From: Minisyncoccota bacterium
GTDB taxonomy: Bacteria > Patescibacteriota > Minisyncoccia > Phycocordibacterales > Phycocordibacteraceae
Length of the DNA: 64,000 nt
NCBI GenBank assembly: GCA_036405415.1
Contig: DASWXP010000002.1
Coordinates: 556,450 to 620,449, forward strand
Direction: 5' to 3'
Shown: piece by piece, positions 3,716 to 57,828 of the stretch
How the letters are laid out: every line of letters begins with the position of its first letter
Numbering within the stretch: position 1 is the first letter of the stretch
Translations under genes and position numbers: made by a program
Notes under the pieces: generated by a model
The model's database searches: none
What the model was told of the DNA's origin: nothing
Seen by the model: only the letters and a program-made list of their open reading frames with translations

Positions 3716-4684
3716 ATGACCAAGATTGTGACTATAGGGGGCGGGACCGGCACATTCGTGGTCCTTTCAGGACTGCGCCGCCTGCCAGACGTTGAGCTCA
3801 CGGCTATCGTCACGAGCGCGGATGACGGAGGTTCAACGGGGAATCTGCGCGACGCGTACGGGTTCCTGCCTGCCGGGGATTCGCGGCAGGCGCTCGTTGC
3901 GCTCGCGGAAGACGGGAACGTGCTGCGCGACTTGTTTGCGTATCGGTTCGAGAAGAGCGAGGTGAAGGGGCACAATCTCGGGAACCTCTTCCTTACGGCG
4001 CTTACGGACATTCTCGGATCAGATGCTGCAGCGCTTGAAGAAGCATCAAGGATTCTGCGCATCTGCGGGACGGTGGTACCCGCGACAGAATATCCTGCAA
4101 CCCTCGTAGCGACGCTTAAGGACGGTACCGTTCTCCGGAACGAGCGGCATATTGATGAGCGTGTCGGAGGCCGCGCTCGGATTGCTGAGATCGCACTTGA
4201 GGAAAATCCTGAAATGTCCCAGGGAGCGCGCAGCGCGATAGAGTCCGCGGACCTGATAATCATCGGCCCGGGGGATCTCTACACGTCAAGCATCGCGGCG
4301 CTCCTGCCGAATGGCATGAAAGAAGCGATCGGAGGCGCCAAGGGCCGTCTTCTGTACGTATCGAATCTGTTTACGAAGTCCGGGCAGACCGAAGACTATT
4401 CGATCAAGGATCATGTGACCGAGGTGGCGCGGTACGCAGGACGCGAGCCTGACATCATTCTCGTGAATCAGGGAGGGTTAACCGAGGACGTGCTCTCTCG
4501 ATACGCTCAGGAAGGGGAGTACCCGCCAAAGGACGACTATCTCGCGTCTGATACGAGGGTACGCAGGCTACCGCTCGTTTCGGTGTATGCTGTTCCTGCA
4601 GTGCCCGGGGACCCGCTTCCGCGCTCCCTGGTGCGTCACGAGCCCGCGAAGCTCGCTGCAGCCATCGCCACTCTTTTCTCATGA
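3716..4684 (+). CDS. YvcK/CofD-family (UPF0052, gluconeogenesis factor-like) protein
   Basis: N-terminal IVTIGGGTG...VTSADDGGSTG motifs characteristic of the YvcK/CofD family. Confidence 0.7.
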   Translation: MTKIVTIGGGTGTFVVLSGLRRLPDVELTAIVTSADDGGSTGNLRDAYGFLPAGDSRQALVALAEDGNVLRDLFAYRFEKSEVKGHNLGNLFLTALTDILGSDAAALEEASRILRICGTVVPATEYPATLVATLKDGTVLRNERHIDERVGGRARIAEIALEENPEMSQGARSAIESADLIIIGPGDLYTSSIAALLPNGMKEAIGGAKGRLLYVSNLFTKSGQTEDYSIKDHVTEVARYAGREPDIILVNQGGLTEDVLSRYAQEGEYPPKDDYLASDTRVRRLPLVSVYAVPAVPGDPLPRSLVRHEPAKLAAAIATLFS

Positions 4685-5199
4685 GGTACTATCTCGATTT
4701 CGACAGGACGGTCTTCGATACGGAAGCGTTCTATGCGTACGTTGAAGAGCGCGAGGGCGGGACGCTTTTTGCAGGTCTGCCGCGCGAGGAATACTCATCC
4801 ACGCTTCATAGCATGGCGCATGAAGGTAAGATCGCGTTCGAGCCTGGCGAGCTTTCTCGGTTCCTCTATCCGGACGCCGATCGGTTTCTTCGGGAGAAGG
4901 AGAATGCAGTCACTATCATCACTTTCGGGGACATAACGTTCCAGCAGATGAAGGTTAAGAGCGCGCTTCAGGGTATCCCGCGCATGTCCGTTATGTATAC
5001 GGGAGACGTGCGTAAAGGCGAGTACCTTGCGCCCCACACACATTTGCATGAAGGAGCTATCGCAGTGGACGATCTGCCGATTGAGCTTGAGGGGTATACA
5101 GCACATTGTCCGCCGATCCAGCTCTTTGAGATACGCAGGAACGGCGCACCGGGAGACGGGGGGTGGCCGGTAATCAAAAGTCTTACGGAACTGCCATGA
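4681..5199 (+). CDS. hypothetical protein, possible HAD-like hydrolase
   Basis: N-terminal LDFDRTVFDT resembles HAD motif I (DxDxT); start overlaps upstream stop (ATGA). Confidence 0.3.
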   Translation: MRYYLDFDRTVFDTEAFYAYVEEREGGTLFAGLPREEYSSTLHSMAHEGKIAFEPGELSRFLYPDADRFLREKENAVTIITFGDITFQQMKVKSALQGIPRMSVMYTGDVRKGEYLAPHTHLHEGAIAVDDLPIELEGYTAHCPPIQLFEIRRNGAPGDGGWPVIKSLTELP

Positions 5200-6704
5200 C
5201 CACCATCCCGAAGATTATTCATTATGTGTGGGTCGGGGGAAGGCCACTTACGCCGCTTGCGCTCAGTTGTATCGAAAGCTGGAAGACGCACGCGCCTGAC
5301 TACGAGCTCCGCCTCTGGAACGAGGAGAATATTCCACTCGACCATCAGTATGTAATCGAGATGTATCGGATGAAGAGGTGGGCATTCGTGTCGGATTACG
5401 TCCGCTTTTGGGCACTCGAGCGTGAAGGAGGAATCTATCTTGATACGGATATGGAACTATTTCGCCCACTCGACACATTCCTCGAGCAGGGCGCGTTCTT
5501 AGGCCGCTCGAAGAGCGGGCACGTTGAGAGTAGTATTGTCGGAGCCTCTGCAGGGCACCCCTTTATTCGCGCAGCTCTTGCGTTCTACGACCGCGATACG
5601 GAATTCTCGACTGAGAACACGTCTCCGCTCGTGCTCGAGCGAATCTTTAAATCAGGTGCATATCCGGACGTCAGGGTGTACGGCCCAGAATACTTCCACC
5701 CCTGTGACGAAGGGGAGTCCTGCCGCCCGAAAGTCCTTGCACAGGCCTATGCACGGCATCATTGGGCAGAGTCGTGGGTACCGTTCGCGTCGCTCCGAAA
5801 GGCGCTTCGGCGCGTCGGCATCATGCCGGCGCTACGAGCCCTGAAGCGGGGGCTGAGCCCCAAGGCCCGTGTACCGTATCGGCCGCTCGTGTCTATAGCC
5901 ATGACTACTTATAACGGCGGGGACCTGATACGTGAGCAGGTCGATTCGATCCTTGCGCAGACCTACCAGAATCTCGAGCTGGTGATAAGTGATGATGGGA
6001 GCGACGAGAAGACCGTCGCGATACTAAACGAGTACGCAAAGAAGGATCCTCGGGTCTCATGGTCTCGAAGTCCCTTAGAGCGCGGGTACGTGAAGAATAC
6101 TGAGAACTCAATATCGCTCTGTAAGGGGGAGATCATCTTCCTGTGCGACCAGGACGATACATGGTATCCGAAAAAAGTTGAAAAGCATGTGGAGCGATAC
6201 CAGGATCCTTCAGTGACATGGGTTTACAATCGCCTCGTCATTACGGACGCCACAGGTAATGAGATAGGGCACCTTGAGGATACGTTGCCCGACTATTACC
6301 GCCACAAAACCATGCTCGAGAATGCATGGGGAACCTGTATCGGAGGTGCGCAGACATCATATCGCGCCTCGGTAGTGAAGAAAGCAATGCCAGTCGGTAG
6401 GTATGCTCCAGCGCATGATTCCTGGATTCAGCTCGCTATCAATCCCATGAGGGGAACGTTCATAAACGAGATTCTACAGACCTATCGCCAGCATGGCGCG
6501 AACGAGGTGGGTGTGCGGGTGTTCACGCCGGAAGAGGAAGCGGAGCGCGAGACGCGCGCGATATATGAGAATCTCCGGTATCTTCGGAACCTACCTTTAA
6601 ATTCTACGTTGCCGCTCTGGAAAAGGACGTTCTTCCTCCTGGTGTATATAGCAAAGCGCGCCCGTGCAGTGATTAGGAAGGCTCGGTCTCGCTTCGTCTC
6701 CTAA
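5196..6704 (+). CDS. bifunctional glycosyltransferase, GT32-like (DXD) N-domain fused to GT2 C-domain
   Basis: N-terminal half has IIHYVWVGG...YLDTDME (GT32/Gly_transf_sug-like); C-terminal half has VSIAMTTYNGGDLIREQVDSILAQTY...ISDDGSDE...CDQDD (GT2). Confidence 0.6.
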   Translation: MTTIPKIIHYVWVGGRPLTPLALSCIESWKTHAPDYELRLWNEENIPLDHQYVIEMYRMKRWAFVSDYVRFWALEREGGIYLDTDMELFRPLDTFLEQGAFLGRSKSGHVESSIVGASAGHPFIRAALAFYDRDTEFSTENTSPLVLERIFKSGAYPDVRVYGPEYFHPCDEGESCRPKVLAQAYARHHWAESWVPFASLRKALRRVGIMPALRALKRGLSPKARVPYRPLVSIAMTTYNGGDLIREQVDSILAQTYQNLELVISDDGSDEKTVAILNEYAKKDPRVSWSRSPLERGYVKNTENSISLCKGEIIFLCDQDDTWYPKKVEKHVERYQDPSVTWVYNRLVITDATGNEIGHLEDTLPDYYRHKTMLENAWGTCIGGAQTSYRASVVKKAMPVGRYAPAHDSWIQLAINPMRGTFINEILQTYRQHGANEVGVRVFTPEEEAERETRAIYENLRYLRNLPLNSTLPLWKRTFFLLVYIAKRARAVIRKARSRFVS

Positions 6705-6705
6705 C

Positions 6706-7746
6706 TCATTTCTTACATGAAAGCACAGCAACCTCGTCTCGTCCGGGGTGCAGTATATGCAGCCATCCCAGCACGAACCAACGCAATTGCTTCGCGAGTT
6801 TTTCGTATAGGCCCGTACGTGTTGGAGGTTCTGGGTGACCGTAGCGCATTAACCCTTCGGAAGCGTCGAGCAGATAGTCTACGCCCTGAAGCGAAGAGAA
6901 GGAGCGGACGCTACTGAACCCTGTTTCAGCGCCGAGCGCCTTCAGCGCCTGCGGCGTGAATATCTGTAGATGGTCGGGCTCGAATCCGCGCCAGTCCTTG
7001 CAATATTTCTGATGCCCGCGAGAAGCCGCGTTTGGGGTTATGGCGATAAGGACGCCTCCTTCCTTCAGAATTCTCCGGCATTCCTGAAGCAGCGCCTTGG
7101 CGCACGGTACGTGCTCTATGACATGACTCATGATGATGGCGTCAAAGAATCCTTCCGGAAATTTTTGCGACTCAAGCTCGCCGACGCGCGCATCGGTACC
7201 TAGTGAGCGTGCGACGTCTACGGCAACCGGATCGAAATCAACGCCGATTCCGCGCCAGCCTCTCTGCTCAAGTGCGCGCAGAGAGCTCCCGTTTCCGCAG
7301 CCCACATCAAGTACGGTACCGCCTGGGACCGCAGGAAGGTAGAAGACACTCGCAGCCTGTGTATCTCGCCACGCGGGATGTAGGTAAGCGATAGAGGCGA
7401 GGAAAGGACGAAGCCATCGAGGAGACGAGGATGCATACCCATACCGCGTATACAGGTACTCGTTCCGCACTGCGTCGCGTAGATGCTGGGCGAATCCTCG
7501 AGATTTCGTTCCTTCTTGGCCGCCTTCATGGGTCGGATAATTGATATAGAGCTTCCAGAGGTCCTCGTCTACCGTTACAGGATCCTGCCAGAGAGTACCG
7601 CAGCGCTTATCGTTGCATTGCTTCCATCTCCATGACCCTGGTAATCCGAGAATCCTGTCTACCCACTCCTCGTAAAGCACCTGCCCGCTCGAAGAGCAGG
7701 TAGGGCATTCCGGACGGGGGCGGGTACGAATTGTCGCGTTATCCAT
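6706..7746 (-). CDS. class I SAM-dependent methyltransferase with N-terminal Cys4 zinc-ribbon
   Basis: CPTC...C..C zinc-ribbon, then LDVGCGNGS motif I and ILKEGGVLIAITPN-type motifs. Confidence 0.6.
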   Translation of the reverse strand: MDNATIRTRPRPECPTCSSSGQVLYEEWVDRILGLPGSWRWKQCNDKRCGTLWQDPVTVDEDLWKLYINYPTHEGGQEGTKSRGFAQHLRDAVRNEYLYTRYGYASSSPRWLRPFLASIAYLHPAWRDTQAASVFYLPAVPGGTVLDVGCGNGSSLRALEQRGWRGIGVDFDPVAVDVARSLGTDARVGELESQKFPEGFFDAIIMSHVIEHVPCAKALLQECRRILKEGGVLIAITPNAASRGHQKYCKDWRGFEPDHLQIFTPQALKALGAETGFSSVRSFSSLQGVDYLLDASEGLMRYGHPEPPTRTGLYEKLAKQLRWFVLGWLHILHPGRDEVAVLSCKK

Positions 7747-7805
7747 ACGATTTCCGCAGTATAGCAGCCAGGGTTTCCCGGTCTTCGCTGATCAAGTACT
7801 TGGAG

Positions 7806-7811
7806 TACAAT
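7806..7811 (+). promoter_or_regulatory. -10-like hexamer TACAAT 7 nt upstream of ATG 7819
   Basis: TACAAT-agctccc-ATG. Confidence 0.3.
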
Positions 7812-7818
7812 AGCTCCC

Positions 7819-8598
7819 ATGGTCAGGGCTTTCGTGATAAACCTCGATACAGACACGGAGCGCATGGCGTTTATGGCACGCCAGCTCGACGCTCTTGGAA
7901 TTCCGTACGAGCGGTTTGCAGCATTGAGAGGGGAGAGCGTGCCAGCCAAGGAGTACGACGCAGAGGCAGCGCGTTCGACCGGAGGGCACGCGCTTATCCC
8001 TGGCGAGCTTGGATGTGCCGCCTCGCATAAGCGGATATACGAGCAGGTGCTCGCGCGCGGGCTCCCATACGCTCTGGTCCTTGAGGATGATGTCGAGCTC
8101 CCTCGCAATTTCGCAGAGATAGTCGAGGAGGAGGTTGCGCGCAACCGCGGGCAATGGGAGTACCTCCTTTTCGACTACTGGGAACCGGGGATGCCATTTC
8201 TCAATAGATGGTTCAAGTCAGTAGGAAGCACGATCCATGCTTCGCGGAAAAACCCTTTCGTGCTCGCGTGGCACGTACTCTATGCGCTTGCGAAGGTGCC
8301 GTACATAGTCCCGCTCTCCATATTCGAAGGTATTCGTAACGCGTACAAGCGCATGCATCCAGGCCCGGTAGTATTCTACCGACCACTATTCCTGGCAGGG
8401 GCCTACCTTGTGTCTCAGGAAGGCGCGCGGAAGCTTCTTTCGCTTTCAGATCCTATTATCTATACCGCAGATGCGCTTCCGAATGAGGCACGGAGGCGGA
8501 GAGGGCTTGCGTTCAAGGCGTATGCGCCTTGCATAGTGCGTCAGGAAAAGGCTCGATTTGGCTCTAGCATCCTCCACCTCCCAGGCTCCGCAACCTAG
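7819..8598 (+). CDS. glycosyltransferase family 25 (LPS/LOS biosynthesis-type)
   Basis: AFVINLDTDTERMAFMARQL...LGCAASHKRIYEQ...LVLEDDVEL typical of GT25. Confidence 0.6.
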   Translation: MVRAFVINLDTDTERMAFMARQLDALGIPYERFAALRGESVPAKEYDAEAARSTGGHALIPGELGCAASHKRIYEQVLARGLPYALVLEDDVELPRNFAEIVEEEVARNRGQWEYLLFDYWEPGMPFLNRWFKSVGSTIHASRKNPFVLAWHVLYALAKVPYIVPLSIFEGIRNAYKRMHPGPVVFYRPLFLAGAYLVSQEGARKLLSLSDPIIYTADALPNEARRRRGLAFKAYAPCIVRQEKARFGSSILHLPGSAT

Positions 8599-8599
8599 C

Positions 8600-9403
8600 A
8601 TGCATACATCCCAACGAGCACTGAGATTTCTTATTCGGTATGCCGCGCACCCGGTGTATATCGTCACCTACCTTGCAAACTATTGGCGCGCAGGGTTTGC
8701 GCTTGGAATCGACTTATACAGCGAGTCTGAAGTAGTGGAAGAAATACGGAGAGGTAGATCCCTCATACGGTTTGGGGATGGAGAGATAAATCTTCTGCTC
8801 GGGCTTCGTAACCACTACCACGGTTACGACCCTAAACTTAGAAGAATGCTAAAGGAGATTGTTAGGGAATATGACAATAACAAGCCGTACATACTCGCCG
8901 TACCGAAGTTTCTAAACTATAGCAATGCTGAGCTAAGACAAGTCGGGAGACTAAACCTGTGGATGCCGTTCAAGATCATGTTCATGCTGTTGTTTCCGAA
9001 ACATGCACGATACATGGATGCGCACTGCTTCTACTACACCGGCTACTTCGAACGGTTCGTCGCTCCAGCGATTGAGGGGAAGCGCGTGATCTTCGTAACG
9101 AATGAGGCTACTCTTGCAAGGCAGCGCACAAACCCTGCCTTCCCGTGGAAAGACAGTATCGAGATTTCAACCCCGAACGAGGAAGCTTTAGCTGTCTACG
9201 AAACGGTGCGTGCAGAACTCCATGAGACTCTATCCCAAGGAAGAAATGGAGAGTTCGTCACGCTTATATCGATGGGTCCGGCAGGTAAGTACTTGGCGAA
9301 GGAACTCGCTGAAGCAGGATATCAGGTTATCGATCTCGGTAAGGCAGCTGAGGTTATATACACTGAGGAGTCGATTGAGTGGATGATATTAGGAGCCCTC
9401 TAG
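8600..9403 (+). CDS. GT-D-type glycosyltransferase (DUF1792 family), paralog 1
   Basis: IRFGDGE motif and overall similarity to the ORF at 13134..13997 (VRFGDE..., SMG[PS]A[GA]K...L...AGY); ATG 8600 lies 1 nt after the upstream stop. Confidence 0.5.
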   Translation: MHTSQRALRFLIRYAAHPVYIVTYLANYWRAGFALGIDLYSESEVVEEIRRGRSLIRFGDGEINLLLGLRNHYHGYDPKLRRMLKEIVREYDNNKPYILAVPKFLNYSNAELRQVGRLNLWMPFKIMFMLLFPKHARYMDAHCFYYTGYFERFVAPAIEGKRVIFVTNEATLARQRTNPAFPWKDSIEISTPNEEALAVYETVRAELHETLSQGRNGEFVTLISMGPAGKYLAKELAEAGYQVIDLGKAAEVIYTEESIEWMILGAL

Positions 9404-9431
9404 AGCGCTCTCCAAGAGTGAGAGAGGTGAC

Positions 9432-10223
9432 CTAGGCCTTTCCGTAGAGCGATGCGAGGTCCTGGAGCTGCACTTTGAGCGGAGGAAGTACTGCGTCACT
9501 TACGAGGCACTTGTTTACGGTCTCCGGAGTCTCAAACGGCTCTAGGGAGATTTCCTTCCCGTACACCTTGGCGACGATACGCAGAACATCGTGCTTACTC
9601 ATGCATTCGGGAGAGGCAATCTGCGTAAGCCTCGGATAGGCATCCCAGTCGCGAATAAGCATGAGCGCCTGCTTTGCCCACTGAAGCGTCGTGATGCCGT
9701 TCCAGTAATGATTGCTATAGCCTCGTACCGTACCTTCGCTCGCGAGGAACCAGTCGAGGAGCGAAAGGGCGGTGCCGCTCTCGTGCCCGATTATCGAGGT
9801 CCGTATGATCTTCGTATGGGATCCGTGTTCCTCGATCCATGCAGATGCCTTTGCCTTGCTTCTGCCGTACGCATCAGCTGCATCGCGCGACGCATCCTTC
9901 TCATACCGCTCGCCAGGAGGAATGGTTCCGAGGAACTCGCAATCCGTGGAGGGGTGGATCACGCGGCTCCCGACGCTGTCGAGGAACAGGGGAAGGGCTA
10001 CGTTCAGCGTTTCGTAGTCGGAGGCCGTCCCACCTTTCTGCGGAATCTTGCCGATTGCATTAACGATATAGTCCGCACTGGAACCGAGGACGGCTTCCTT
10101 AAACGCTTCGTCGGGCCATCGCGCGCTCGTGGTCACGCATTCTATATCAGCATACGAATCGAGGTGCCTGAAGACCGCATCCCCGAGCATGCCCCGATGT
10201 CCAAGAATGAGTACTCGAGTCAT
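9432..10223 (-). CDS. RmlD-like SDR (dTDP-4-dehydrorhamnose reductase family) sugar-nucleotide reductase
   Basis: VLILGHRGMLG N-terminal Rossmann, YGRSK catalytic motif. Confidence 0.55.
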   Translation of the reverse strand: MTRVLILGHRGMLGDAVFRHLDSYADIECVTTSARWPDEAFKEAVLGSSADYIVNAIGKIPQKGGTASDYETLNVALPLFLDSVGSRVIHPSTDCEFLGTIPPGERYEKDASRDAADAYGRSKAKASAWIEEHGSHTKIIRTSIIGHESGTALSLLDWFLASEGTVRGYSNHYWNGITTLQWAKQALMLIRDWDAYPRLTQIASPECMSKHDVLRIVAKVYGKEISLEPFETPETVNKCLVSDAVLPPLKVQLQDLASLYGKA

Positions 10224-11163
10224 GATGGCTTGAAGTAATCGTGATCCTTAAGAAGGGTTCGGAGATCTTCCTTTGAAATGACACAGTCTTCGGACGAGAG
10301 TCCGTTCTTCGGAAGCCTGCCTTCATGGTACACGTTCCGATAGTGGAGGAGGTATTTTTTGTTGGCTTCATCGTACGTCGCGCGCTCCATCTCATACGGA
10401 GAGATCATCTGCTCATGGGTCTTCTCTGAGATACGAGGCACGCCGAGCTGCCAAGTGAGACTGAACTCCTCTTGGTATATCTCAAAGAGGTCCTTCACCT
10501 TGAAGGCAGGGAGATCAGGGACGATATTGAAGCCAGTCTTCTCGAGTGCATACTCTATGCAGTCGATCGCCTCTTCAATATCGATCATGAATCGCGTCAT
10601 GTCCTCGGAGTAGAGGGTGAGAGGGTACTGCTTGCCGATCGAATCCCAGATGAGTGGGATGATAGAGCCAGTAGAGTTAAGGACATTGCCGTAGATCACG
10701 GAGGTAAGCCGACACGACTCCTCCTCTGCATTGAGCGTGAATGCCTCTCCCGCCACGAACTTCATGGCGCCGTACAGCGTCGTAGCGCAACGACTCTTGT
10801 CGGTCGAAATAAATGCCGCGGCTTTGAGCCCGTTATCGATAGCTGCCTTGCGGGAGTTCATTGCACCGTGGATGATGACCTGCAACGCCTCTTCCACATT
10901 CTGATCCACCGCCTCGATCTGCTTGAGTGAAGCCGCGAATATGCCGATAGTGTGTCCCGCCACGGAGCGGTGCAAGAGCTCGGCGTTTCGAATGTCGCCG
11001 ATGATGCAGCGCACCCTTGGGAAACGCTTTTTAAGGTAGTAATGCTTCGATTCGTCGCGACTGAAGATCGTGATGTCGTTGTGCTCGTAAAAGCGCTTCA
11101 CCAGGTTCCTTCCCAGATATCCCGCGCCGCCGGTAATGAATATCTTCTCGCCTTTGATCATGT
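10220..11163 (-). CDS. PseB/CapD-like UDP-sugar 4,6-dehydratase (polysaccharide biosynthesis protein)
   Basis: KIFITGGAGYLGRNL Rossmann start, YGAMK catalytic motif; start likely ATG 11163 (MIKGEK). Confidence 0.6.
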
Positions 11164-11297
11164 ATGGAGTATATAACCCGCTTGTTTGAATAATAGTAGC
11201 ACCGATTCCCCGGGGGACCACCTAATTGACATCCCATACTCTACTGGTGAAAAGAAATCACATCGCCTTGGGTATTCATTGTTATACTCAAGCCACA

Positions 11298-12329
11298 ATG
11301 ACTACCCGTCGCGTAACTGTCGTAACTGTTGTGTTTGGGGACCGGTGGGACCTTCTTCGTCAGGTTGCAGATTCTCTACTCCCAGATCCTCTCGCCACCA
11401 CGTTTGTCATTGTAGATAACGGCTGCACGGACCGAGAGTTAATGGATGCTTACGCAGCCAACCACCCGGATCGAGTAGTGGTGCTGAGACAGGAAGAGAA
11501 TATTGGCTACTCGGGTGCGATACGCAAAGGTCTCGAGTACGCGCGTACTACCGACTGCGACCGCGTGTTCGTGCTCGACGACGACTCGGTCCCTGAGCCG
11601 GGAGCCATAGGCCGCCTGTATGAGAACCTGGCGTTTTTCCCGGAGCCCGAGAAGATTGTTCTCGCAGGCAACCGCATCGACGTGGCTGACAACGCAAAGG
11701 TCTTCAATCGGTTGCCGTCAAAAACCCTGATGCCTAAAGGTACGCTTTTCGAAGTGTTCTCATTTAGGAAGTTCGTATCGCTCGTGCGGCTCCTCCTCAG
11801 AATACCGAAGCCGGCTGGAGACCCGTATCTTCCTATGGTCCCGCTCGAAGCACTCGTAACCGGCGGGTCGTTCATTCCTATCGGTGCTATCCGCACGACC
11901 GAGCTTCCTGACCCTGAGCTCTTCCTGTATGGCGAGGATCTTGAGTTCTCCTGGCGTATGCGGCGGAACGGATACTCCTGCTACGTGTGTGCACAGCCGG
12001 TGATACGTGATATCGATCTCACATTCTCAAAAGAGGGGGATCATATCTTTGACCTTTTCGAGTCTAAGTTTAGGGACTACAAGGTGTATTTCCGCATCCG
12101 GAACGCAGTCATCATATCTCGTAGGAACACTATCCAGGCGCCTCCGGTGCTTTTAGCGAATGTGCTTATCTGGACGGCAGGTCTCATTGCCATCGGTTTC
12201 TTCGCGAAGGGCCTCTCAAAAACGTTCTTTAAGAGGGCGCGAATCATACTCCGTGCGGTGCGCGACGGCTACGGCTCGGAACGTACGCCCCCGCCGTTTA
12301 TCGAGATACCGGGACGGAAGCGCGCTTAG
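11298..12329 (+). CDS. GT2-family glycosyltransferase
   Basis: VTVVTVVFGDR...VIVDNGCTD...VLDDD motifs; start at ATG 11298 (MTTRR). Confidence 0.6.
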   Translation: MTTRRVTVVTVVFGDRWDLLRQVADSLLPDPLATTFVIVDNGCTDRELMDAYAANHPDRVVVLRQEENIGYSGAIRKGLEYARTTDCDRVFVLDDDSVPEPGAIGRLYENLAFFPEPEKIVLAGNRIDVADNAKVFNRLPSKTLMPKGTLFEVFSFRKFVSLVRLLLRIPKPAGDPYLPMVPLEALVTGGSFIPIGAIRTTELPDPELFLYGEDLEFSWRMRRNGYSCYVCAQPVIRDIDLTFSKEGDHIFDLFESKFRDYKVYFRIRNAVIISRRNTIQAPPVLLANVLIWTAGLIAIGFFAKGLSKTFFKRARIILRAVRDGYGSERTPPPFIEIPGRKRA

Positions 12330-13101
12330 GTATGCACATCCTTCCAAAGCGGAGCGCCATATAGACGAAGAGGGCGAGGTTCCAGAGGTTTCGAGATCCA
12401 ATCTCGCGCGTAAGACGCGCGTACAGCCCGAGCCTAGAGCGGAACGATGCGCGCTCATGCGTGACGCCCCCTGGCAGATACCCTTCCGAATATGTTCCCG
12501 GAAAGGGTAGGTACGTGAACCGGGGACATGCTCTCGCTATCTGCGAGAAGAAAAACCACTCCTCGCCATTCTTTGCCGAAGAAGGGAAGACGCATGCCAG
12601 CGCGTGCACCGAGTTGATGCAATGCGTCGCATCTCCGCTGAATCTCTTCGTTATGAGGTACTCGCGATAATAGGAGACCTCGGAACAGCCCGTGCGGTTC
12701 TTCGTGAGCCGTGTACCGCTAGAGAGGACCCGGTCTGACACAAGCCAGCCATATGGTCGTTCTGAGAGCGTTCTTGCAAACTGCTCAAGGCAGTCGCTAT
12801 CGAGCCAGTCATCGTCATCAAGGAGAATGATGTACCCTTTAAATCCTGAATTTCGCAGGTGCGCGAGTGCAGCATTGAGGGATGCGTTCTTTCCTTCGTT
12901 CTCGGTGTTGCGTATATATGTGATTCTTTTATCTTCAGCGACGGATCGTTCGAAATCGCCATAGGGAATCTCTGGTGAATCGTTCACGCATACGAGTTTC
13001 CATTCTGGATAGGATTGCGCGCGAATGCTCTCAAGGGCCCTTATGGCGAGCGCTTCGCGAGCGTGAGTAGGCATGAGCACGGCGAATCGGACGGGTAGCA
13101 T
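12298..13101 (-). CDS. GT2-family glycosyltransferase
   Basis: FAVLMPTHAREA...VCVNDSPE...ILLDDDDW motifs; start ambiguous (13125/13101/13074). Confidence 0.55.
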   Translation of the reverse strand: MLPVRFAVLMPTHAREALAIRALESIRAQSYPEWKLVCVNDSPEIPYGDFERSVAEDKRITYIRNTENEGKNASLNAALAHLRNSGFKGYIILLDDDDWLDSDCLEQFARTLSERPYGWLVSDRVLSSGTRLTKNRTGCSEVSYYREYLITKRFSGDATHCINSVHALACVFPSSAKNGEEWFFFSQIARACPRFTYLPFPGTYSEGYLPGGVTHERASFRSRLGLYARLTREIGSRNLWNLALFVYMALRFGRMCIPKRASVPVSR

Positions 13102-13133
13102 AGTGTGATATCGTGCGAAAAGCATACCACTTC

Positions 13134-13997
13134 ATGCAACATGCCATGAGCCACCTTACCCATATTTGGAAGAACCGACTGTCTAAATTCAGGGACAACC
13201 CAGGAGGCATTTGGCCGTTTCTTAAGAAGCGGCTCTACTACAACTTCGTTGCGGACCGCTATCTCGGCGCGTACAAGGATTTCCAATATTTGAATTACGA
13301 AGAGACTATCGACACTGCGATTCGCGAGAACAGGTCTGTTGTGCGTTTCGGTGACGAGCTCTTTGACATGCTCCAGGGCATTGGCTTGTACTTCGGGAAC
13401 TGGCGCCAGCGCTATCATCCCGAGCTCGCAGGCCGGCTCAAGGAAATCATCTCGTCGGAAGACGAGCGTCTCCTTATCTGTTTCAATCCGGAGCTCATAC
13501 TCAAGACTAGAAAGGAATTCCGCGACATGGGTATCCCTGAGCAGTATCAGTTCTGGACGAACTCGAAGATGTTCCTGAGGAAGTATTATCACCCACACAT
13601 TGTGTATGGCAGCGCGCTCTCGTTTCATACCCGCTATAATCCTGATCTGGATTTCGAGAAGCTCGGACGTTACTTCGCCACTAAGGATGTGATCATTGTT
13701 ACTTCGGATACGGCTCGGTTCGAGGGACTCTCTCTCGGTAAAAGCACTGCGTTCATAGAGGCGCCTGCGAGCGATGCCTGGGACCGGTACGCAGAGATCT
13801 ATCAGGAGATAGTCCGTCGCATTAAGGCGGGACATCTCTACACGAAAGACGTGCTCGTCATGGTCTCCATGGGAAGCGCTGCCAAGGTGCTTGTCTACGA
13901 TCTTACGAAGGCCGGATATGTGGCATGGGATACGGGCCAGTTCTTCGACTTAGCCTCAAAGAGGATCAATGCGCTCGGGGGCAGGTCAGCTTCCTAG
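13134..13997 (+). CDS. GT-D-type glycosyltransferase (DUF1792 family), paralog 2
   Basis: VRFGDE motif; shares motifs with 8600..9403; start ambiguous (13113/13134/13146). Confidence 0.5.
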   Translation: MQHAMSHLTHIWKNRLSKFRDNPGGIWPFLKKRLYYNFVADRYLGAYKDFQYLNYEETIDTAIRENRSVVRFGDELFDMLQGIGLYFGNWRQRYHPELAGRLKEIISSEDERLLICFNPELILKTRKEFRDMGIPEQYQFWTNSKMFLRKYYHPHIVYGSALSFHTRYNPDLDFEKLGRYFATKDVIIVTSDTARFEGLSLGKSTAFIEAPASDAWDRYAEIYQEIVRRIKAGHLYTKDVLVMVSMGSAAKVLVYDLTKAGYVAWDTGQFFDLASKRINALGGRSAS

Positions 13998-15350
13998 TGG
14001 GTTCCCAGGAAGATCAACAGCGAGTCTCGAGTCTCCCTTTTGAGGGGTCGAAGACCGTCGGACGAAGAGAATAAATAGAGGCACGAGACTGTAGGAGAGC
14101 ACTGTTGCATACGCCGCGCCGAGGATTCCGTATGCCGGTATCCAAAGTAGGTTGCAGACGATATTCACGGTCATGGGCACGAGCGCCGAAAGGACCAACA
14201 CAAGTCGCTTGTTCTTTGTGGTGAGATAGGTGTGGACGAGGATACTGAGCGAGGTACCAACGAACGACCATATATAGACTTGGAGCACGGGTATCGTGGC
14301 TGCGAATTCAGGGCCGTACAGGAGTGGCACGACAAACGGCGCGAGGAGCATCACGAACATGGAGATTCCTACGGGAATAGCGACGAATAGCCAGCTTATG
14401 CGGAGCATCCTTCTTTCGAATACGCGCTCGTCAGACCGGTGCGCGTTTACAATGGCGGGAAAGAGGGCTGATGCGATCGCGCCAGGAATGAAATTCCAGA
14501 GATCCGTAAGTCGTACCGCCGCATCATAAATGCCCACAGCCTCTGCATCAATAAAATGCTTGATAAATACCTGGTCGATGCGGGCATAGATAACTGTGAA
14601 CGCGCTCAGGAACATAATCGGAAGCGAGTCAGCGAGCAGGCGCCGTGCGAGCGTCGGCTCCCATACCCAGTCCCTGAGGCGGTTATGGAAGCGCGTCCGA
14701 TAGAGGTATACGTACATGACCGCATAAAGCGCCGGTTCAAGAAGGAGAATGAGTGCGAGGTATATCACTCCTTCTCCGGCGAGCATAACGCACACCTTGA
14801 GTATATTGAGCACTATCGTGGCCAGTATCGAGATGAGCGTTGGATACTTTGATTCGGCTCGCGCAAGAAATGCAAAAGAGATCACCTGGAATGGAACAAG
14901 AATGAAGGTACCAGCAAGTATGAGAATAAGAATGCGTGAGACGTCATCCGCGGCGACAGTCGCAGCAAGCACTCCCGCAACGACAGCAGTCAGGATCCCG
15001 GCGCCCATTCGCAGCACGAACGAAGTGCCGAGAAGCTGCGAGCGCTTCTCAGGCTCCTTGATGAGTTCACGGAAGAGGATGGTATCAAGCCCAAGTGGCG
15101 CCAAGAACCCAACCAGTCCTACAACGCTGAGCGCATAACTTATCTGCCCATAGTTTTCAGGTCCGAGGTTCCGAGCGATAAACAGGGTCGCTAGGAAGGA
15201 GATGCCGAGTGTAAGCATCCTCCCGCCTAGGAGCCAAGTGGCATTCTTGAAGTATCTTCGAAAACCCTGGTGTATCCAGGCCAGGCGCAGGAGCGCGAGG
15301 GGTCGAGCGAGGATGGGGAGACGGCTCATGAGATGGGTAAATCGTAGCAT
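13986..15350 (-). CDS. Wzx-like polysaccharide/oligosaccharide flippase (multi-pass membrane protein)
   Basis: About 12 predicted TM segments with polysaccharide-biosynthesis-protein-type N-terminus (KNATWLLGGRMLTLGISFL...). Confidence 0.55.
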   Translation of the reverse strand: MLRFTHLMSRLPILARPLALLRLAWIHQGFRRYFKNATWLLGGRMLTLGISFLATLFIARNLGPENYGQISYALSVVGLVGFLAPLGLDTILFRELIKEPEKRSQLLGTSFVLRMGAGILTAVVAGVLAATVAADDVSRILILILAGTFILVPFQVISFAFLARAESKYPTLISILATIVLNILKVCVMLAGEGVIYLALILLLEPALYAVMYVYLYRTRFHNRLRDWVWEPTLARRLLADSLPIMFLSAFTVIYARIDQVFIKHFIDAEAVGIYDAAVRLTDLWNFIPGAIASALFPAIVNAHRSDERVFERRMLRISWLFVAIPVGISMFVMLLAPFVVPLLYGPEFAATIPVLQVYIWSFVGTSLSILVHTYLTTKNKRLVLVLSALVPMTVNIVCNLLWIPAYGILGAAYATVLSYSLVPLFILFVRRSSTPQKGDSRLAVDLPGNPLGS

Positions 15351-15433
15351 CTTGGAAAGGGGTATTGGATATAACCTCGTTGCCCAGGGATTCGTGGCAG
15401 AAATCGGAAATCGAGTAGTATACTGGCCGCATC

Positions 15434-17614
15434 ATGAAAGACGCCGCCCGATGGACCGCTTTGCTAGCCTTGTTCGCGATCCCGTTCCTACCCTTATATG
15501 TATCGAATGAACTTTTCTTCCCGTTCATTACCGGGAAGAACTTCGCGTTCAGGATTCTCGTTGAAATCGCTTTCGTAGCGTATGGATTCCTCGCGCTTGT
15601 AGACAGACGGTATCGTCCGAAGTATTCGCATGTGTTGGCGGCATTCGGCGGGCTCGTTGCTTGGACAGCTGTTGCGAACATGCTCGGCGTGCTCCCGATG
15701 AAAGCGTTCTGGAGTAACTTCGAGCGCATGGACGGGTGGGTGACTCTGGTGCATCTCTTCCTATTCTTCGTCGTGGCGGGCGCAGTGCTTTCGGTTGAGC
15801 GGCTGTGGCGGCGCTGGTGGCTCTTCTTTGTATCTGTTGCGGCGGTAGTGTGTCTTTACGGACTGGTGCAGCTTGGGGGCGGTGCGGAAATCCACCAGGG
15901 AGGCGTGCGTCTCACTGGAACGCTCGGTAACGCTATCTACCTCGCGGTGTACCTCATGTTTGCGATATTCATTTCGTGCTGGCTTGCGGTCCGCTCTAAA
16001 GGCTGGCTTCGCTGGTCGCTTATCGGTTTTATAGCACTCGCGTTCGTCATCATGTTCTTCACCGGATCGCGCGGTCCGCTCGTCGGCCTCATTGCAGGCA
16101 CCATCTCCGGCGCGGGACTGTGGCTCTTCCTCGCTCGTAAGGAGTGGGGTAAAGGCGCTGCAGCGACCGGCATCAAGATTGCGCTCGGAAGCGTCGCTGC
16201 GCTCGTGCTTGCAGGCGGACTGCTGTTTTCGCTCAAGGATAGCGACACCGTTACCGGAAACCCGTTCCTTTCGCGTGCAGCATCCCTCTTCTCAGTGGGA
16301 AGCGAGCTCGAAGTTCGCGAAAAGCTCTGGGGAATCGCGTTCAAGGGTGTAGCGGAGGATCCGATTACCGGCTGGGGTCAGGAAGGGTTCAATCAGGTCT
16401 TCAACAAGTATTACGATCCTTCGCTCTACGATCAGGAGGCGTGGTTCGATCGTGCGCACAACATGTACATCGACTGGTTCGTTGCAGGCGGTATCCCTGC
16501 CGGGCTCCTATTCCTTGCGCTTCTCGGCCTCGGATTCACCGCGCTCGTACGCCTCCCGGGGGCGTCCCGTGCGGAGCGAGTATTCCTTGTTTCTGCATTC
16601 GTAGCATATGCAGTTCAGGCGATCGTAGTGTTCGACAATCTCTTTAGCTACGTACCGCTCATGATGCTCCTTGCGATGGCACATGCGCAGTCGGGCAGGA
16701 ATGTCCGCGCACTCAGTAATGCACCTGAAATGGATGCTGAGAGTACCCGGGGTTATGCAGTCGCGAGTGCGGGGGCTATCATCCTTATCGCCATCATTTG
16801 GACGGTGAATGTGTCAGGAATTCAAGCCGCCAATCATCTCGTCTATGCGCTTTCCTCAGGTCAGAGCGCCACATCGAGCCTTGCTCGATTCGAGGAAGCG
16901 CTCGCGGCAGACTCTTTCGCGTCACAAGAGATCCGAGAACAATTCTCTTCAGCCGCCACATCGCTTAGTGAGAACGAAGCCATACCGGAGCAGATTCGTA
17001 AGGAATTTCTCGTTCGTGCAGCGGAAGAGATGAATAAAGAGGTAGCTTCGTCTCCTAACGATGCGCGTTTGCGTGTACAGTACGCTTCGCTTCTCAAAGC
17101 AGCAGGGGACATAGAAGGAGCGCTAACACAGTATCAAGCGGCGCTCGCGCTTTCTCCGAAGAAGCAGGCAATCTATGTGACGCGCGGATTCATGTTCCAC
17201 GACCTTGGCGATAATGAGTCAGCTCAGCGTGACTTCATATATGCATATGAGCTCGATCCTTCTTTCCCGTCGCTCAATACCAGTATCGCTGCCGGCTTAA
17301 TAATCACAGGCGACGTGGCTAAAGGTAAGGAGATAGCCATGGAGGTATTCAGTACGACTACACCTGACGATGATTCGTTGTTCCTAGCATACTACCGGAC
17401 AAAGGCATGGAACGACCTTATCGCGGTGGCGCGTGCAGGAGTTCTTGCGCGCAGCAACGAGCCTGAGGCGCACTACAGACTTGCGCAGGCGTATGCTGCT
17501 GCAGGTCGTATGGCAGAAGCGCGCGCACAGATCGTACAGACAGTAAAGTCATTCCCTGCGACGCGTGAGCTTGGAGAAGCGCTCATGCAAGAGATCTTCG
17601 GCCAGGCACGATGA
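15434..17614 (+). CDS. O-antigen ligase/polymerase-family (Wzy_C) membrane protein with C-terminal TPR repeats
   Basis: Multi-TM N-domain with FFTGSRGPLVGL motif typical of O-antigen ligase family; C-terminal ~250 aa TPR-like repeats. Confidence 0.6.
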   Translation: MKDAARWTALLALFAIPFLPLYVSNELFFPFITGKNFAFRILVEIAFVAYGFLALVDRRYRPKYSHVLAAFGGLVAWTAVANMLGVLPMKAFWSNFERMDGWVTLVHLFLFFVVAGAVLSVERLWRRWWLFFVSVAAVVCLYGLVQLGGGAEIHQGGVRLTGTLGNAIYLAVYLMFAIFISCWLAVRSKGWLRWSLIGFIALAFVIMFFTGSRGPLVGLIAGTISGAGLWLFLARKEWGKGAAATGIKIALGSVAALVLAGGLLFSLKDSDTVTGNPFLSRAASLFSVGSELEVREKLWGIAFKGVAEDPITGWGQEGFNQVFNKYYDPSLYDQEAWFDRAHNMYIDWFVAGGIPAGLLFLALLGLGFTALVRLPGASRAERVFLVSAFVAYAVQAIVVFDNLFSYVPLMMLLAMAHAQSGRNVRALSNAPEMDAESTRGYAVASAGAIILIAIIWTVNVSGIQAANHLVYALSSGQSATSSLARFEEALAADSFASQEIREQFSSAATSLSENEAIPEQIRKEFLVRAAEEMNKEVASSPNDARLRVQYASLLKAAGDIEGALTQYQAALALSPKKQAIYVTRGFMFHDLGDNESAQRDFIYAYELDPSFPSLNTSIAAGLIITGDVAKGKEIAMEVFSTTTPDDDSLFLAYYRTKAWNDLIAVARAGVLARSNEPEAHYRLAQAYAAAGRMAEARAQIVQTVKSFPATRELGEALMQEIFGQAR

Positions 17615-18804: not shown

Positions 18805-18978
18805 ATGGCAGCAAAGAAGAAGACCGTTCGCAAGGCAGCTAAGAAGTCGGTAAAGAAGGCAGCTCCTAAGAAGAAGACTGCAAAGAAGACCGTCAAGAAG
18901 GCAGCTAAGCGTCCGGCAGCAAAGAAGAAGGCTGCGAAGAAGGCTCCTGCGAAGCGCAAGACCGCGCGCCGCAAGTAG
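18805..18978 (+). CDS. small Lys/Ala-rich histone H1-like / nucleoid-associated basic protein (57 aa; missed by ORF track)
   Basis: ATG 18805 to TAG 18976-18978 encodes MAAKKKTVRKAAKKSVKKAAPKKKTAKKTVKKAAKRPAAKKKAAKKAPAKRKTARRK, followed by a hairpin terminator. Confidence 0.5.
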   Translation: MAAKKKTVRKAAKKSVKKAAPKKKTAKKTVKKAAKRPAAKKKAAKKAPAKRKTARRK

Positions 18979-25103: not shown

Positions 25104-25147
25104 AATATAGATATCTCGTCTCGTATCAAAGAGATTAGATAAAACGT

Positions 25148-25183
25148 ATAGAACACCCTCAACTTATGTTGAGGGTGTTCTAT
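25148..25183 (+). repeat. perfect 16-bp inverted repeat, 4-nt loop
   Basis: atagaacaccctcaac-ttat-gttgagggtgttctat. Confidence 0.45.
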
Positions 25184-25310
25184 CAATTTAGATCAGCTAA
25201 ATAAAGGCTAACCACTAGCAAATATGTACAAAAAGTCATTCTGTAGGAATTAATACTCCGTAGACGGTCTCTTAATAACTGGCAAAAAATTAGAGATTAA
25301 GAGCAATTAA

Positions 25311-25348
25311 CGAGCCCTACATACCTATATATAGATATGTAGGGCTCG
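25311..25348 (+). repeat. 38-bp near-perfect palindrome centred on CTATATATAG
   Basis: cgagccctacata-c-ctatatatag-a-tatgtagggctcg; candidate operator. Confidence 0.45.
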
Positions 25349-57753: not shown

Positions 57754-57813
57754 AGATGCCAGAGCGTTCTCGTAAGCATAGCAAATACGCCTGTTTTTTC
57801 TAGGTTTCCGCTG

Positions 57814-57819
57814 TATACT
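57814..57819 (+). promoter_or_regulatory. -10-like TATACT 9 nt upstream of pheS ATG
   Basis: ctgtatactgcggaagac-ATG. Confidence 0.35.
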
Positions 57820-57828
57820 GCGGAAGAC

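Follow-up and report, generated by a model that had tools for sequence, protein, structure and literature searches.

What does the sugar gene island at positions 5196 to 17614 make, and onto what would its product be placed? The island lies in a 64,000-nucleotide stretch of DNA (the window) from a member of Candidatus Paceibacterota (CPR), an ultra-small, monoderm-type bacterium, whose SecA is 100% identical to that of a Candidatus Paceibacterota MAG. A sequence-only reading had proposed a twelve-gene Wzx/Wzy-type heteroglycan pathway with duplicated GT-D (DUF1792) enzymes, and had suggested that the island may decorate a giant surface fibre encoded nearby. Pfam reproduced all of its family calls, but the genes, with starts taken from the gene calls of the identical contig, number 11, as they do in that reading's own list, and no intergenic gap in the island is big enough to hold a twelfth. 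The island is thus confirmed as a surface-sugar cluster, and it has two parts with separate histories, namely (i) a "glycotype" cassette of ten genes (5196-15329) that varies among strains and is exchanged horizontally and (ii) a conserved gene at its right flank, hereafter Wzy_C-TPR. The features are as follows.

3716-4684, + strand: CofD-family gene, left conserved flank (Pfam CofD, 253 bits)
4681-5199, + strand: 172-aa gene, left conserved flank (no family match)
5196-6704, + strand: cassette gene 1, glycosyltransferase with fused GT32-type (DXD) and GT2 domains (PF04488 Gly_transf_sug, 53 bits; PF00535 Glycos_transf_2, 97.8 bits)
6706-7746, - strand: cassette gene 2, SAM-dependent methyltransferase (Methyltransf_23, 93.9 bits)
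7819-8598, + strand: cassette gene 3, GT25 glycosyltransferase (PF01755, 95.8 bits)
8600-9403, + strand: cassette gene 4, GT-D paralog 1 (PF08759, 61.0 bits; cutoff 27)
9432-10223, - strand: cassette gene 5, RmlD-like short-chain reductase, predicted 4-keto reductase (PF04321 RmlD_sub_bind, 37.1 bits)
10220-11161, - strand: cassette gene 6, soluble UDP-HexNAc 4,6-dehydratase of the PseB/FnlA/CapE group (PF02719 Polysacc_synt_2, 145 bits)
11298-12329, + strand: cassette gene 7, GT2 glycosyltransferase (PF00535, 51.7 bits)
12298-13101, - strand: cassette gene 8, GT2 glycosyltransferase (PF00535, 78.3 bits)
13134-13997, + strand: cassette gene 9, GT-D paralog 2 (PF08759, 78.9 bits)
13986-15329, - strand: cassette gene 10, Wzx-type MOP flippase (PF01943 Polysacc_synt, 100 bits)
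15434-17614, + strand: Wzy_C-TPR, conserved right-flank gene, candidate glycan ligase / O-oligosaccharyltransferase (Wzy_C, 62 bits, plus TPR)
16500-16560, no strand: mosaic (recombination) breakpoint relative to contig L014/L008 (drop in nucleotide identity)
17611-18621, + strand: murB, conserved partner outside the variable cassette (FAD_binding_4 and MurB_C)
25688-37981, + strand: giant membrane-anchored Thr/Gly/Ser/Asn-rich protein, 4097 aa (Peptidase_S74, Bact_surface_Ig-like, N-terminal HTH_17)

The compositional comparison that the earlier reading had suggested showed that the island genes are lower than the other window genes in both GC (0.542 versus 0.600, Mann-Whitney p = 6e-5) and GC3 (0.627 versus 0.726, p = 0.0015). 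Within the cassette, the dehydratase matched PseB (TIGR03589, 165.7 bits) and FnlA (113 bits), each under its equivalog cutoff, as well as PDB entries 4TQG, 4J2O, 3VVB, and 2GN4; the reductase, whose gene overlaps that of the dehydratase by 4 nt, weakly matched the dTDP-4-dehydrorhamnose reductases 8G22 and 4WPG. The translated methyltransferase carries an N-terminal four-Cys motif (CxxC...Cx4C) that appears zinc-ribbon-like, the GT2 protein at 11298-12329 weakly matched the rhamnosyltransferase family TIGR01556, and the GT32 domain, fused to GT2 in gene 1, is encoded by a separate gene in the relative L011. No initiating phosphoglycosyltransferase was found in the island or the window. With seven glycosyltransferase domains, a methyltransferase, and a dehydratase/reductase pair predicted to make a 6-deoxy-HexNAc, this gene content upholds the proposed lipid-linked, Wzx-flipped, methylated heteroglycan as the probable product.

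Comparison with relatives separated the cassette from its surroundings. The two-GT-D cassette was found in five populations, with identical gene order and mixed strands in L008/L014, L009, L010, and L011, whereas other gene sets, without GT-D, occupied this site in six relatives and 39 metagenome loci. The unlike cassettes are those of L004 (GT4, DegT, formyltransferase), L005, L006, L007 (IS1595 and PemK), L012, and L013 (GtrA/GT2/PMT_2). Among the metagenome loci, all with at least 5.9 kb of upstream sequence, none of the 39 matched the GT-D HMM, and their contents, in varying order, included Wzx (21 loci), methyltransferases (24), GT4 (15), SDR (11), and DegT (6). Cassette type does not follow phylogeny: L004 is the closest relative by SecA (88%), yet has a different cassette, and L011, with only 74% identity in SecA and 45% in Wzy_C-TPR, yet has the same one (Wzx 60%, GT-D2 68%, dehydratase 75%). 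The Wzx flippase is likewise cassette-specific, with 51-60% identity solely in same-cassette relatives, 41% in L004, and no detectable similarity in the others. The CofD/172-aa pair is the immediate left neighbor of the cassette both in L012, where the cassette differs, and in L014, where it is the same. Nucleotide identity to L014/L008 is 82-95% from 3323 to ~16528 and 61-78% thence into murB, so that the breakpoint falls inside the Wzy_C-TPR gene; this mosaic alone is no proof that the cassette alone moved, because the left flank is similar too (CofD in L014, 91% nt). By analogy with galF/gnd, the position of the cassette beside a conserved gene may mark only a recombination hotspot.

Wzy_C-TPR, by contrast with the cassette, belongs to the core genes of the lineage. 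It shows 45-63% identity in all sequenced relatives whatever their cassette (84% in L008), its N-terminal half follows SecA rather than cassette type, and it is translationally coupled to murB, whose start overlaps its stop by 4 nt and which lies directly downstream of it in 9 of 10 relatives (not in L011) and in most of 80 metagenome loci. Structure models (pLDDT 88 and 78) predict a 13-TM, WaaL-fold Wzy_C domain (aa 1-470) followed by a TPR superhelix (aa ~480-723), and the positive-inside rule predicts an extracytoplasmic location for the latter. In Foldseek, the sole significant match of the model was WaaL (7TPG, E 5e-6). Further, Arg213, Arg295, and His342 are invariant and align with WaaL Arg215, Arg288, and His338, three residues indispensable to WaaL that PglL also conserves (PMC3643930). 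The evidence for the putative link to WaaL thus comprises the Pfam match, the fold of the model, and these three residues; neither profile searches of PDB sequences nor an hhalign comparison with E. coli WaaL gave a match. We infer that Wzy_C-TPR is a ligase of relaxed specificity, which may act as an O-oligosaccharyltransferase on proteins, as WsfB and PglL do.

Taken as a whole, the locus is rather probably an exchangeable glycan cassette combined with a conserved WaaL-fold enzyme that moves the glycan to a surface acceptor. [quoted passage not shown] For a bacterium lacking lipid A, the acceptor would most likely be one or more surface proteins, to which the outward TPR domain would bind, as proposed for WsfB and PglL. 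A protein acceptor, as the sequence-only reading had suggested, remains plausible.

Several known systems share parts of this organization. Enterobacterial O-antigen loci have a hypervariable, lower-GC GT/Wzx cassette between conserved flanks, exchanged by recombination, with a conserved ligase (WaaL, the match of the Wzy_C-TPR fold) and an initiating transferase (WecA) encoded elsewhere; unlike them, the cassette here has no Wzy or Wzz, and its ligase candidate directly adjoins it and carries a fused TPR domain. In Patescibacteria, moreover, no lipid A-core acceptor is expected. The slg loci of Paenibacillus alvei (WsfB) and Geobacillus stearothermophilus (WsaB) share with this one a monoderm host, a lipid-linked glycan, soluble glycosyltransferases, nucleotide-sugar genes, an O-methyltransferase, and a last transfer by a Wzy_C-domain membrane enzyme, which in WsfB, compared here by description, has a C-terminal TPR (PMC2943079). 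However, the G. stearothermophilus glycan is exported by the ABC transporter Wzm/Wzt (PMC2943079) rather than by a Wzx flippase, no S-layer gene or other acceptor was identified here, and here variation is confined to the rest of the locus, the transferase being a core gene that is conserved and coupled to murB. PglL systems of Neisseria, Acinetobacter, and Burkholderia likewise pair a conserved, glycan-promiscuous Wzy_C enzyme with strain-variable glycan genes and a flippase, and the Arg-Arg-His residues, common to PglL and WaaL (PMC3643930), recur in Wzy_C-TPR. Unlike in those systems, the PglL_A motif (PF15864) was not detected by Pfam in Wzy_C-TPR, the host, a CPR bacterium, lacks an outer membrane, the TPR domain is far larger (about 250 aa), and no pilin target is adjacent, the nearest pilin-like genes being about 25 and 30 kb off.

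A less probable alternative is that the locus follows the classical Wzx/Wzy route to a polysaccharide (a capsule, an exopolysaccharide, or a secondary cell-wall polymer like the Bacillus teichuronic acid of TuaB/TuaE/TuaG), for which Wzy_C-TPR would be the repeat-unit polymerase and another enzyme would release the polymer or attach it to peptidoglycan. The Bacillus subtilis tua operon is likewise monoderm and Wzx-dependent, with GT2 enzymes and a Wzy_C-family membrane protein, such as adjoins Wzx here, although its polymerase TuaE is not known to carry a TPR domain and no TuaA-type initiator is present in this locus; NCBIfam gave weak matches to TuaG (75 bits) and TuaB (35 bits), all far under the equivalog cutoffs; the murB coupling hints at a cell-wall context; and the second Foldseek match was the polymerase RodA (6PL5, E 0.03). 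In L014, the catalytic half of Wzy_C-TPR (93% aa) is on the cassette side of the breakpoint, which could reflect some co-adaptation. The fold and residues are compatible with a polymerase too, because Wzy enzymes share a general GT-C-like architecture. Yet a polymerase should vary with its repeat unit, whereas Wzy_C-TPR stays orthologous over its full length beside at least seven unrelated cassettes, and neither the window nor any cassette seen contains Wzz/PCP or LCP genes. Wzy_C-TPR also retains the Arg-Arg-His set, and in a single Pfam run E. coli WaaL matched Wzy_C, whereas of two bona fide E. coli polymerases WzyE matched only PF06899 and WbbH nothing. The label "Wzy polymerase" for 15434-17614 is thus doubtful, since the gene is kept whatever the cassette and bears ligase signatures. 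Less probable still is a ligase with a non-protein acceptor (a membrane glycolipid, lipoglycan anchor, or peptidoglycan precursor), yielding a lipid- or wall-anchored "O-antigen-like" glycan in a monoderm. The WaaL fold and catalytic residues would suit it, as WaaL ligates to a glycolipid, and so would the murB overlap conserved in 9 of 10 relatives and the absence of PglL_A; against it stand a 250-residue extracytoplasmic superhelix, a protein-binding module absent from WaaL (419 aa in E. coli), and the absence of lipid A or glycolipid-anchor genes from the window. Moreover, the documented Wzy_C plus C-terminal TPR enzymes, PglL and the S-layer enzyme WsfB of monoderm P. alvei, are protein O-oligosaccharyltransferases (PMC2943079).

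There remains the proposal of direct O-glycosylation of the giant Thr/Asn-rich fibre by the duplicated GT-D enzymes, in the manner of DUF1792 enzymes on serine-rich repeat adhesins, which we consider very improbable. Both proteins are true family members above the Pfam threshold, with the solved DUF1792 structures 4PFX, 4PHR, and 5V4A as their best structural relatives (GT-D1 with 4PFX, E 1.3e-9; GT-D2 with 5V4A, E 2e-15). At 27% identity to each other, they are ancient paralogs rather than products of a recent duplication. Like dGT1 of Streptococcus parasanguinis, the founding GT-D, which acts in Fap1 glycosylation, GT-D1 retains the DXE Mn2+ motif (PMC9804384), as RFGDGE in alignment A3, whereas the GT-D2 clade there has GDE[LAVF] in place of GDGE, that is, D-E-x rather than D-x-E. 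Among 127 GT-D2 homologs, the six with a source name are all called GT-D glycosyltransferases, and three of these come from Paceibacterota MAGs. Unlike dGT1, both proteins are stand-alone (267-287 aa) without a GT-A fusion, and their predicted acceptor is a lipid-linked oligosaccharide rather than a protein; GT-D1, the one scanned with NCBIfam, reached 57.7 bits in TIGR03728, the glycosyltransferase family of serine-rich adhesins, whose cutoff is 290.75. GtfA/GtfB, DUF1975, SecA2/SecY2, Asp genes, and a serine-rich substrate are all absent from the window, leaving no aSec/GtfAB context, and the sole SecA is the housekeeping ortholog. GT-D enzymes have so far been characterized solely in Fap1/PsrP glycosylation (PMC6973325, PMC9961541), which is a point for the proposal. 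The cassette Wzx nevertheless favors lipid-linked assembly and hence en bloc extracellular transfer rather than stepwise glycosylation in the cytoplasm, the setting in which GT-D enzymes have been characterized.

The giant gene itself was correctly placed, its ORF starting 8074 bp downstream of the island end, and its product is rich in Ser, Thr (12.1%), and Asn (6.9%), the latter two being 5.6% and 2.8% in window core proteins; searches for alternating-serine repeats and LPXTG found neither. Proximity loses its force, however, as five housekeeping genes (murB, a 57-aa ORF, secA, obg, and gatB) intervene and the stretch as a whole shows the conserved synteny of a streamlined genome: the block Wzy_C-TPR/murB/secA/obg/gatB/~300-aa gene/giant gene is kept in all relatives with enough sequence (L004-L007, L009, L012, and L013), and about 24 metagenome loci have it as far as the ~300-aa gene or the giant N-terminus. 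The giant gene accompanies every cassette type, and its similarity is independent of cassette type (44% in L009 versus 45-50% in non-GT-D relatives). Co-conservation with the giant gene, set beforehand as the refuting test, was lacking for the GT-D genes, which neither the six relatives nor the 39 metagenome loci carry, all of which keep the giant-gene block, and direct GT-D glycosylation of the fibre is on that ground largely refuted. Of the sequence-only reading, the heteroglycan pathway is thus supported and the GT-D and proximity arguments are not; the giant gene is context only, with no evidence linking the cassette specifically to it. The GT-D genes are ordinary cassette cargo, and their presence is therefore not informative on the giant fibre specifically.

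The gene calls of the glycan island were checked against an ORF listing and Pfam scans, with start codons taken from the gene calls on an identical contig. It contains 11 genes (5196-17614), one fewer than the sequence-only reading had claimed, and the families named there were each reproduced. We refer to the first ten genes (5196-15329) as the cassette and to the last (15434-17614), for reasons of conservation described below, as Wzy_C-TPR.

Genes of the island (coordinates, strand, predicted product)
5196-6704, +, GT32-type and GT2 fusion
6706-7746, -, SAM methyltransferase with an N-terminal four-Cys motif
7819-8598, +, GT25
8600-9403, +, GT-D paralog 1 (GT-D1)
9432-10223, -, RmlD-like reductase
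10220-11161, -, PseB/FnlA/CapE-type dehydratase
11298-12329, +, GT2
12298-13101, -, GT2
13134-13997, +, GT-D paralog 2 (GT-D2)
13986-15329, -, Wzx
15434-17614, +, Wzy_C and TPR (Wzy_C-TPR)

The cassette genes have a GC content of 0.542, compared with 0.600 for the rest of the window (p = 6e-5). Wzx is a MOP-family flippase (PF01943, 100 bits; PF13440, 83.5 bits). The more specific PseB, FnlA, and RmlD equivalog identities were dropped, as all fell below cutoff in an NCBIfam scan. A search of the 64-kb window, and of 10 related loci as far as these are visible, found neither an initiating phosphoglycosyltransferase nor a Wzz/PCP protein; both may be encoded elsewhere in the 622-kb genome. A 172-aa gene (4681-5199) was considered as a small PglC-like initiator and rejected, having no Pfam match and being part of the conserved flank. 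A glycan cluster with GT-D genes is in itself ordinary.

Both GT-D assignments stand: GT-D1 and GT-D2 score 61.0 and 78.9 bits, respectively, against PF08759 (gathering threshold 27), and the pair matches the solved DUF1792 structures 4PFX, 4PHR, and 5V4A (GT-D2 with 5V4A at E 2e-15 and with 4PFX at E 1.3e-12; GT-D1 with 4PFX at E 1.3e-9). Since they share only 27% identity, the two are old paralogs. PMC9804384 (citing Zhang 2014) gives DXE as the Mn2+-binding motif of GT-D enzymes. In an alignment of GT-D2 homologs (A3), this motif is intact in GT-D1 as RFGDGE, whereas GT-D2, like 13 of the 14 homologs aligned with it, carries RFGDE[LAVF], with the Asp invariant and the Glu displaced by one position. 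Because this shift is conserved, GT-D2 is probably a functional enzyme, though its motif is non-canonical, and the alignment suggests a variant metal site in the GT-D2 clade rather than a dead enzyme. Further, GT-D1, the paralog covered by the NCBIfam scan, reached 57.7 bits with TIGR03728 (the SP_1767 accessory GT family), far under the cutoff of 290.75; a GT-D domain does not by itself mean adhesin glycosylation.

The window belongs to a CPR lineage: its SecA matches a protein from a 622-kb contig of a Candidatus Paceibacterota MAG at 100% identity, and its gene content is CPR-like (a split transketolase, a class I aldolase, RpiB, and a short PheS together with EF-Ts). Starting from homologs of SecA, Wzy_C-TPR, and GT-D2, we read ten related loci (labelled within L004 to L014). 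The order Wzy_C-TPR, murB, small ORF, secA, obg, gatB, ∼300-aa gene, and giant gene is conserved in all loci reaching that far, and murB overlaps the Wzy_C-TPR stop codon by 4 nt. Upstream of Wzy_C-TPR, gene content is not conserved. The two-GT-D cassette recurs in the same gene order in L008/L014, L009, L010, and L011, with the unusual strand pattern + - + + - - + - + - in common. Other loci carry, in the same position, (i) GT4, GT4, DegT, oxidoreductase, and formyltransferase genes (L004); (ii) a transposase of the IS1595 family together with a PemK toxin gene (L007, 3427-4248 and 2926-3339); (iii) a GtrA/GT2/PMT_2 trio (L013, 5410-9930), which is a polyprenyl-phosphate-sugar system glycosylating outside the cytoplasm; or (iv) other gene mixes (L005, L006, and L012). 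In L011, a TrwB-like gene directly abuts the cassette; in the window, a TrwB/VirD4-like coupling ATPase and a Lamin-tail/PKD surface protein (760-3592) lie upstream of the left flank.

Identity to the window proteins in two related loci
L004 (closest by SecA), different cassette: SecA 88%, Wzy_C-TPR 62%, Wzx 41%, GT-D2 none, dehydratase none
L011, same two-GT-D cassette: SecA 74%, Wzy_C-TPR 45%, Wzx 60%, GT-D2 68%, dehydratase 75%

Wzx thus goes with cassette type, and Wzy_C-TPR goes with SecA. The N-terminal half of Wzy_C-TPR is 54-72% identical whatever the cassette. Its TPR half (16529-17614) shows 39-55% amino acid identity in the same relatives, versus 54-72% for the membrane half, and this faster evolution fits a domain facing variable partners. 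A metagenome scan added 80 further Wzy_C-TPR loci, almost all of which keep the downstream synteny as far as the ∼300-aa gene and the giant N-terminus. A GT-D HMM matched in none of the 39 loci with at least 5.9 kb of upstream sequence, in which rough local HMMs placed Wzx, methyltransferases, GT4, GT2, SDR, and DegT in varying orders. A MurB search of genome contigs gave one match (36%, Terriglobia), which is irrelevant here. Aligned with L014, the window is 82-95% identical in nucleotides over CofD, the cassette, and the opening ∼365 codons of Wzy_C-TPR, and identity then falls abruptly to 61-78% over the TPR half and murB, which places a recombination breakpoint inside this conserved flanking gene. 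This right-hand breakpoint is the only demonstrable one; transfer of the cassette alone was dropped as an explanation, since the left flank is also alike (CofD, 91% nucleotide identity). Lineage-wide in this CPR group, a conserved, TPR-bearing, ligase-like gene coupled to murB stands beside cassettes that can be swapped. A variable glycan locus and a Wzy_C ligase are both of known kinds, and the lineage-wide swap in CPR is the added feature.

Wzy_C-TPR belongs to a family of >1400 proteins; the 120 homologs listed are mostly 706-760 aa long, and those named by source are almost all from Patescibacteria. Its Pfam content comprises only Wzy_C and TPR. Wzy_C (PF04932) scores 62-63 bits over residues 200-361, covering a large external loop, and in the same run Escherichia coli WaaL scored 50 bits at the same relative position (residues 205-354). 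The polymerase WzyE matched only PF06899, for which Wzy_C-TPR has no match, and the polymerase WbbH matched nothing. AlphaFold models (pLDDT 88 for the full length and 78 for residues 1-470) have 13 transmembrane helices with an external loop of 77 residues and end in a TPR superhelix (residues ∼480-723, pLDDT > 90), the top fold matches of which are OGT and consensus TPRs. Foldseek with the full-length model returned TPR proteins only. The membrane fold was seen after residues 1-470 were modeled alone, when the O-antigen ligase WaaL (7TPG_B) emerged as the only match below 1e-3 (E 5.3e-6, TM 0.54/0.61, 458 columns). The positive-inside rule predicts an extracytoplasmic position for the catalytic loop as well as for the TPR domain.

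Arg213, Arg295, and His342 are invariant in 35 family members and, in an alignment of low identity, share columns with Arg215, Arg288, and His338 of E. coli WaaL, to which they are probably equivalent. WaaL requires these three residues, and PglL conserves them (PMC3643930). A C-terminal TPR joined to Wzy_C, as in Wzy_C-TPR, is also found in PglL and in WsfB, which serves the monoderm Paenibacillus alvei as S-layer O-oligosaccharyltransferase (PMC2943079). Ligases of the WaaL/PglL/WsfB type move an undecaprenyl-PP-linked glycan en bloc onto lipid A-core or onto Ser/Thr/Tyr of proteins. PglL, however, carries a PglL_A motif (PF15864), to which Wzy_C-TPR has no match at E <= 1, and Wzy_C-TPR is thus not a PglL-family protein in the narrow sense. 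A profile of the membrane domain matched no PDB sequence, and its hhalign comparisons with E. coli WaaL, WzyE, and WbbH were all uninformative (probability < 1%), so that sequence profiles do not here separate ligase from polymerase. Lacking PglL_A, and with profiles that do not reach WaaL, Wzy_C-TPR constitutes a distinct branch of the superfamily. A literature search on CPR glycosylation and on O-antigen ligases in Patescibacteria returned nothing relevant, which is no proof of novelty.

The giant gene (25688-37981, +, 4097 aa) starts 8074 bp past the island, in agreement with the ∼8 kb proposed earlier, and the interval holds murB, a 57-aa Lys/Ala-rich ORF, secA, obg, gatB, and a 304-aa gene. 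The sequence-only reading had tied the GT-D genes to this putative fibre. Its Wzx/Wzy-type pathway and its possible protein target survive, but its GT-D/fibre argument does not: the giant gene is present whatever the cassette, and its protein similarity (44-50% among relatives) does not go with cassette type. The protein is rich in Thr (12.1%), Gly (12.1%), Ser (10.2%), and Asn (6.9%), yet it contains 32 S-x-S motifs against ∼43 expected, with no alternating-serine repeats and no LPXTG anchor. No domains of a GtfA/GtfB priming pair (GT4 with DUF1975) occur in any scanned ORF of the window, which also holds no SecY2, Asp genes, or SecA2; its sole SecA, 82-88% identical in relatives and in conserved synteny, is the housekeeping ortholog. 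With GT-D confined to one cassette type while the giant gene is core, the GT-D genes are cargo of one recurrent glycotype. Direct glycosylation of the fibre by GT-D enzymes is very improbable given this failure of co-conservation, which the sequence-only reading had itself named as an outcome that would refute it. The fibre may be one acceptor, and none of the evidence picks it out.

Several further features of this region were observed. The 57-aa ORF (18805-18978, +, MAAKKKTVRKAAKK...) looks histone H1/Hc1-like, has no Pfam match, and lies in a low-GC stretch between murB and secA, where a small ORF is also called in the relatives examined. The ∼60 N-terminal residues of the giant protein form an HTH_17-like, excisionase-type module, after which comes a transmembrane segment. 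The 304-aa gene just upstream (24189-25103) has this module at its N terminus as well (∼45% identity over 50 aa), and the two genes follow gatB as a pair in ∼20 related loci. Elsewhere in the giant protein are GNVGIGTT repeats, runs of TNATxTN with many N-x-T sequons (aa 600-800), an Ig-like domain, a Peptidase_S74 intramolecular-chaperone domain (aa 3620-3676), and a Pro/Ala tail; cysteine is absent. The AT-rich intergenic stretch of ∼580 bp upstream of its gene (25104-25687; GC 0.40 in bin 25001-26000 versus ∼0.60 for the genome) may serve as a promoter or in regulation. Far from the island, a 444-aa processive-type GT2 with chitin-synthase/GT21-like matches is encoded at 56515-57849 (-).

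In the pathway that we infer, the dehydratase/reductase pair would supply a UDP-6-deoxy-HexNAc (its nearest families are PseB and FnlA, both below equivalog cutoffs); the seven GT domains and the methyltransferase would build a lipid-linked oligosaccharide on a primer from an enzyme encoded elsewhere; the cassette's own Wzx would flip it; and the conserved, WaaL-fold Wzy_C-TPR would move the glycan onto an acceptor outside the membrane. The last step could instead be polymerization. A Wzy_C domain does not by itself mean polymerase, and no repeat-unit-specific Wzy varying with the cassette was found among the loci; the sole candidate, Wzy_C-TPR, is orthologous beside at least seven different cassettes and tracks SecA. 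Its conservation beside unrelated cassettes argues for relaxed glycan specificity, and so for a ligase or O-oligosaccharyltransferase over a repeat-unit polymerase, which we consider unlikely, if still a serious competitor. The large external TPR and the lack of lipid A expected in this phylum favor protein acceptors, and ligation to a non-protein acceptor is decidedly unlikely. On balance, we lean slightly toward Wzy_C-TPR being a relaxed-specificity ligase or O-oligosaccharyltransferase, with protein acceptors favored.

A broader proposal, put forward tentatively and with somewhat less than even confidence, is that Paceibacterota (CPR) bacteria possess a lineage-wide, general surface-protein O-glycosylation system, in which the conserved, murB-coupled Wzy_C-TPR, with its 13-helix WaaL fold and large extracellular TPR domain, would transfer glycans en bloc to surface proteins and the cassette, swapped by recombination, would set the glycan, giving serotype-like variation. 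Its acceptors could include pilins and CARDB/PKD proteins, and possibly also the conserved giant fibre 8 kb downstream. The window encodes pilins and CARDB/LTD/PKD surface proteins, and its two type IV pilin-like genes (N_methyl with T2SSG; 42116-42754 and 47283-47825) are possible targets.

CPR bacteria are for the most part uncultured and spend their lives attached to host cells. The surface glycan of a whole CPR lineage is here encoded by a hot-swappable cassette between fixed flanks, beside a conserved ligase-like enzyme, with two-GT-D cassettes as one recurrent glycotype among many. If the general O-glycosylation proposal is true, it would mean serotype-like surface variation in episymbionts, with a bearing on host recognition and on phage evasion. 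A coat of variable glycans that one conserved enzyme attaches would offer a concrete way to approach host specificity, phage pressure, and strain diversity, and Wzy_C-TPR offers a single testable target.
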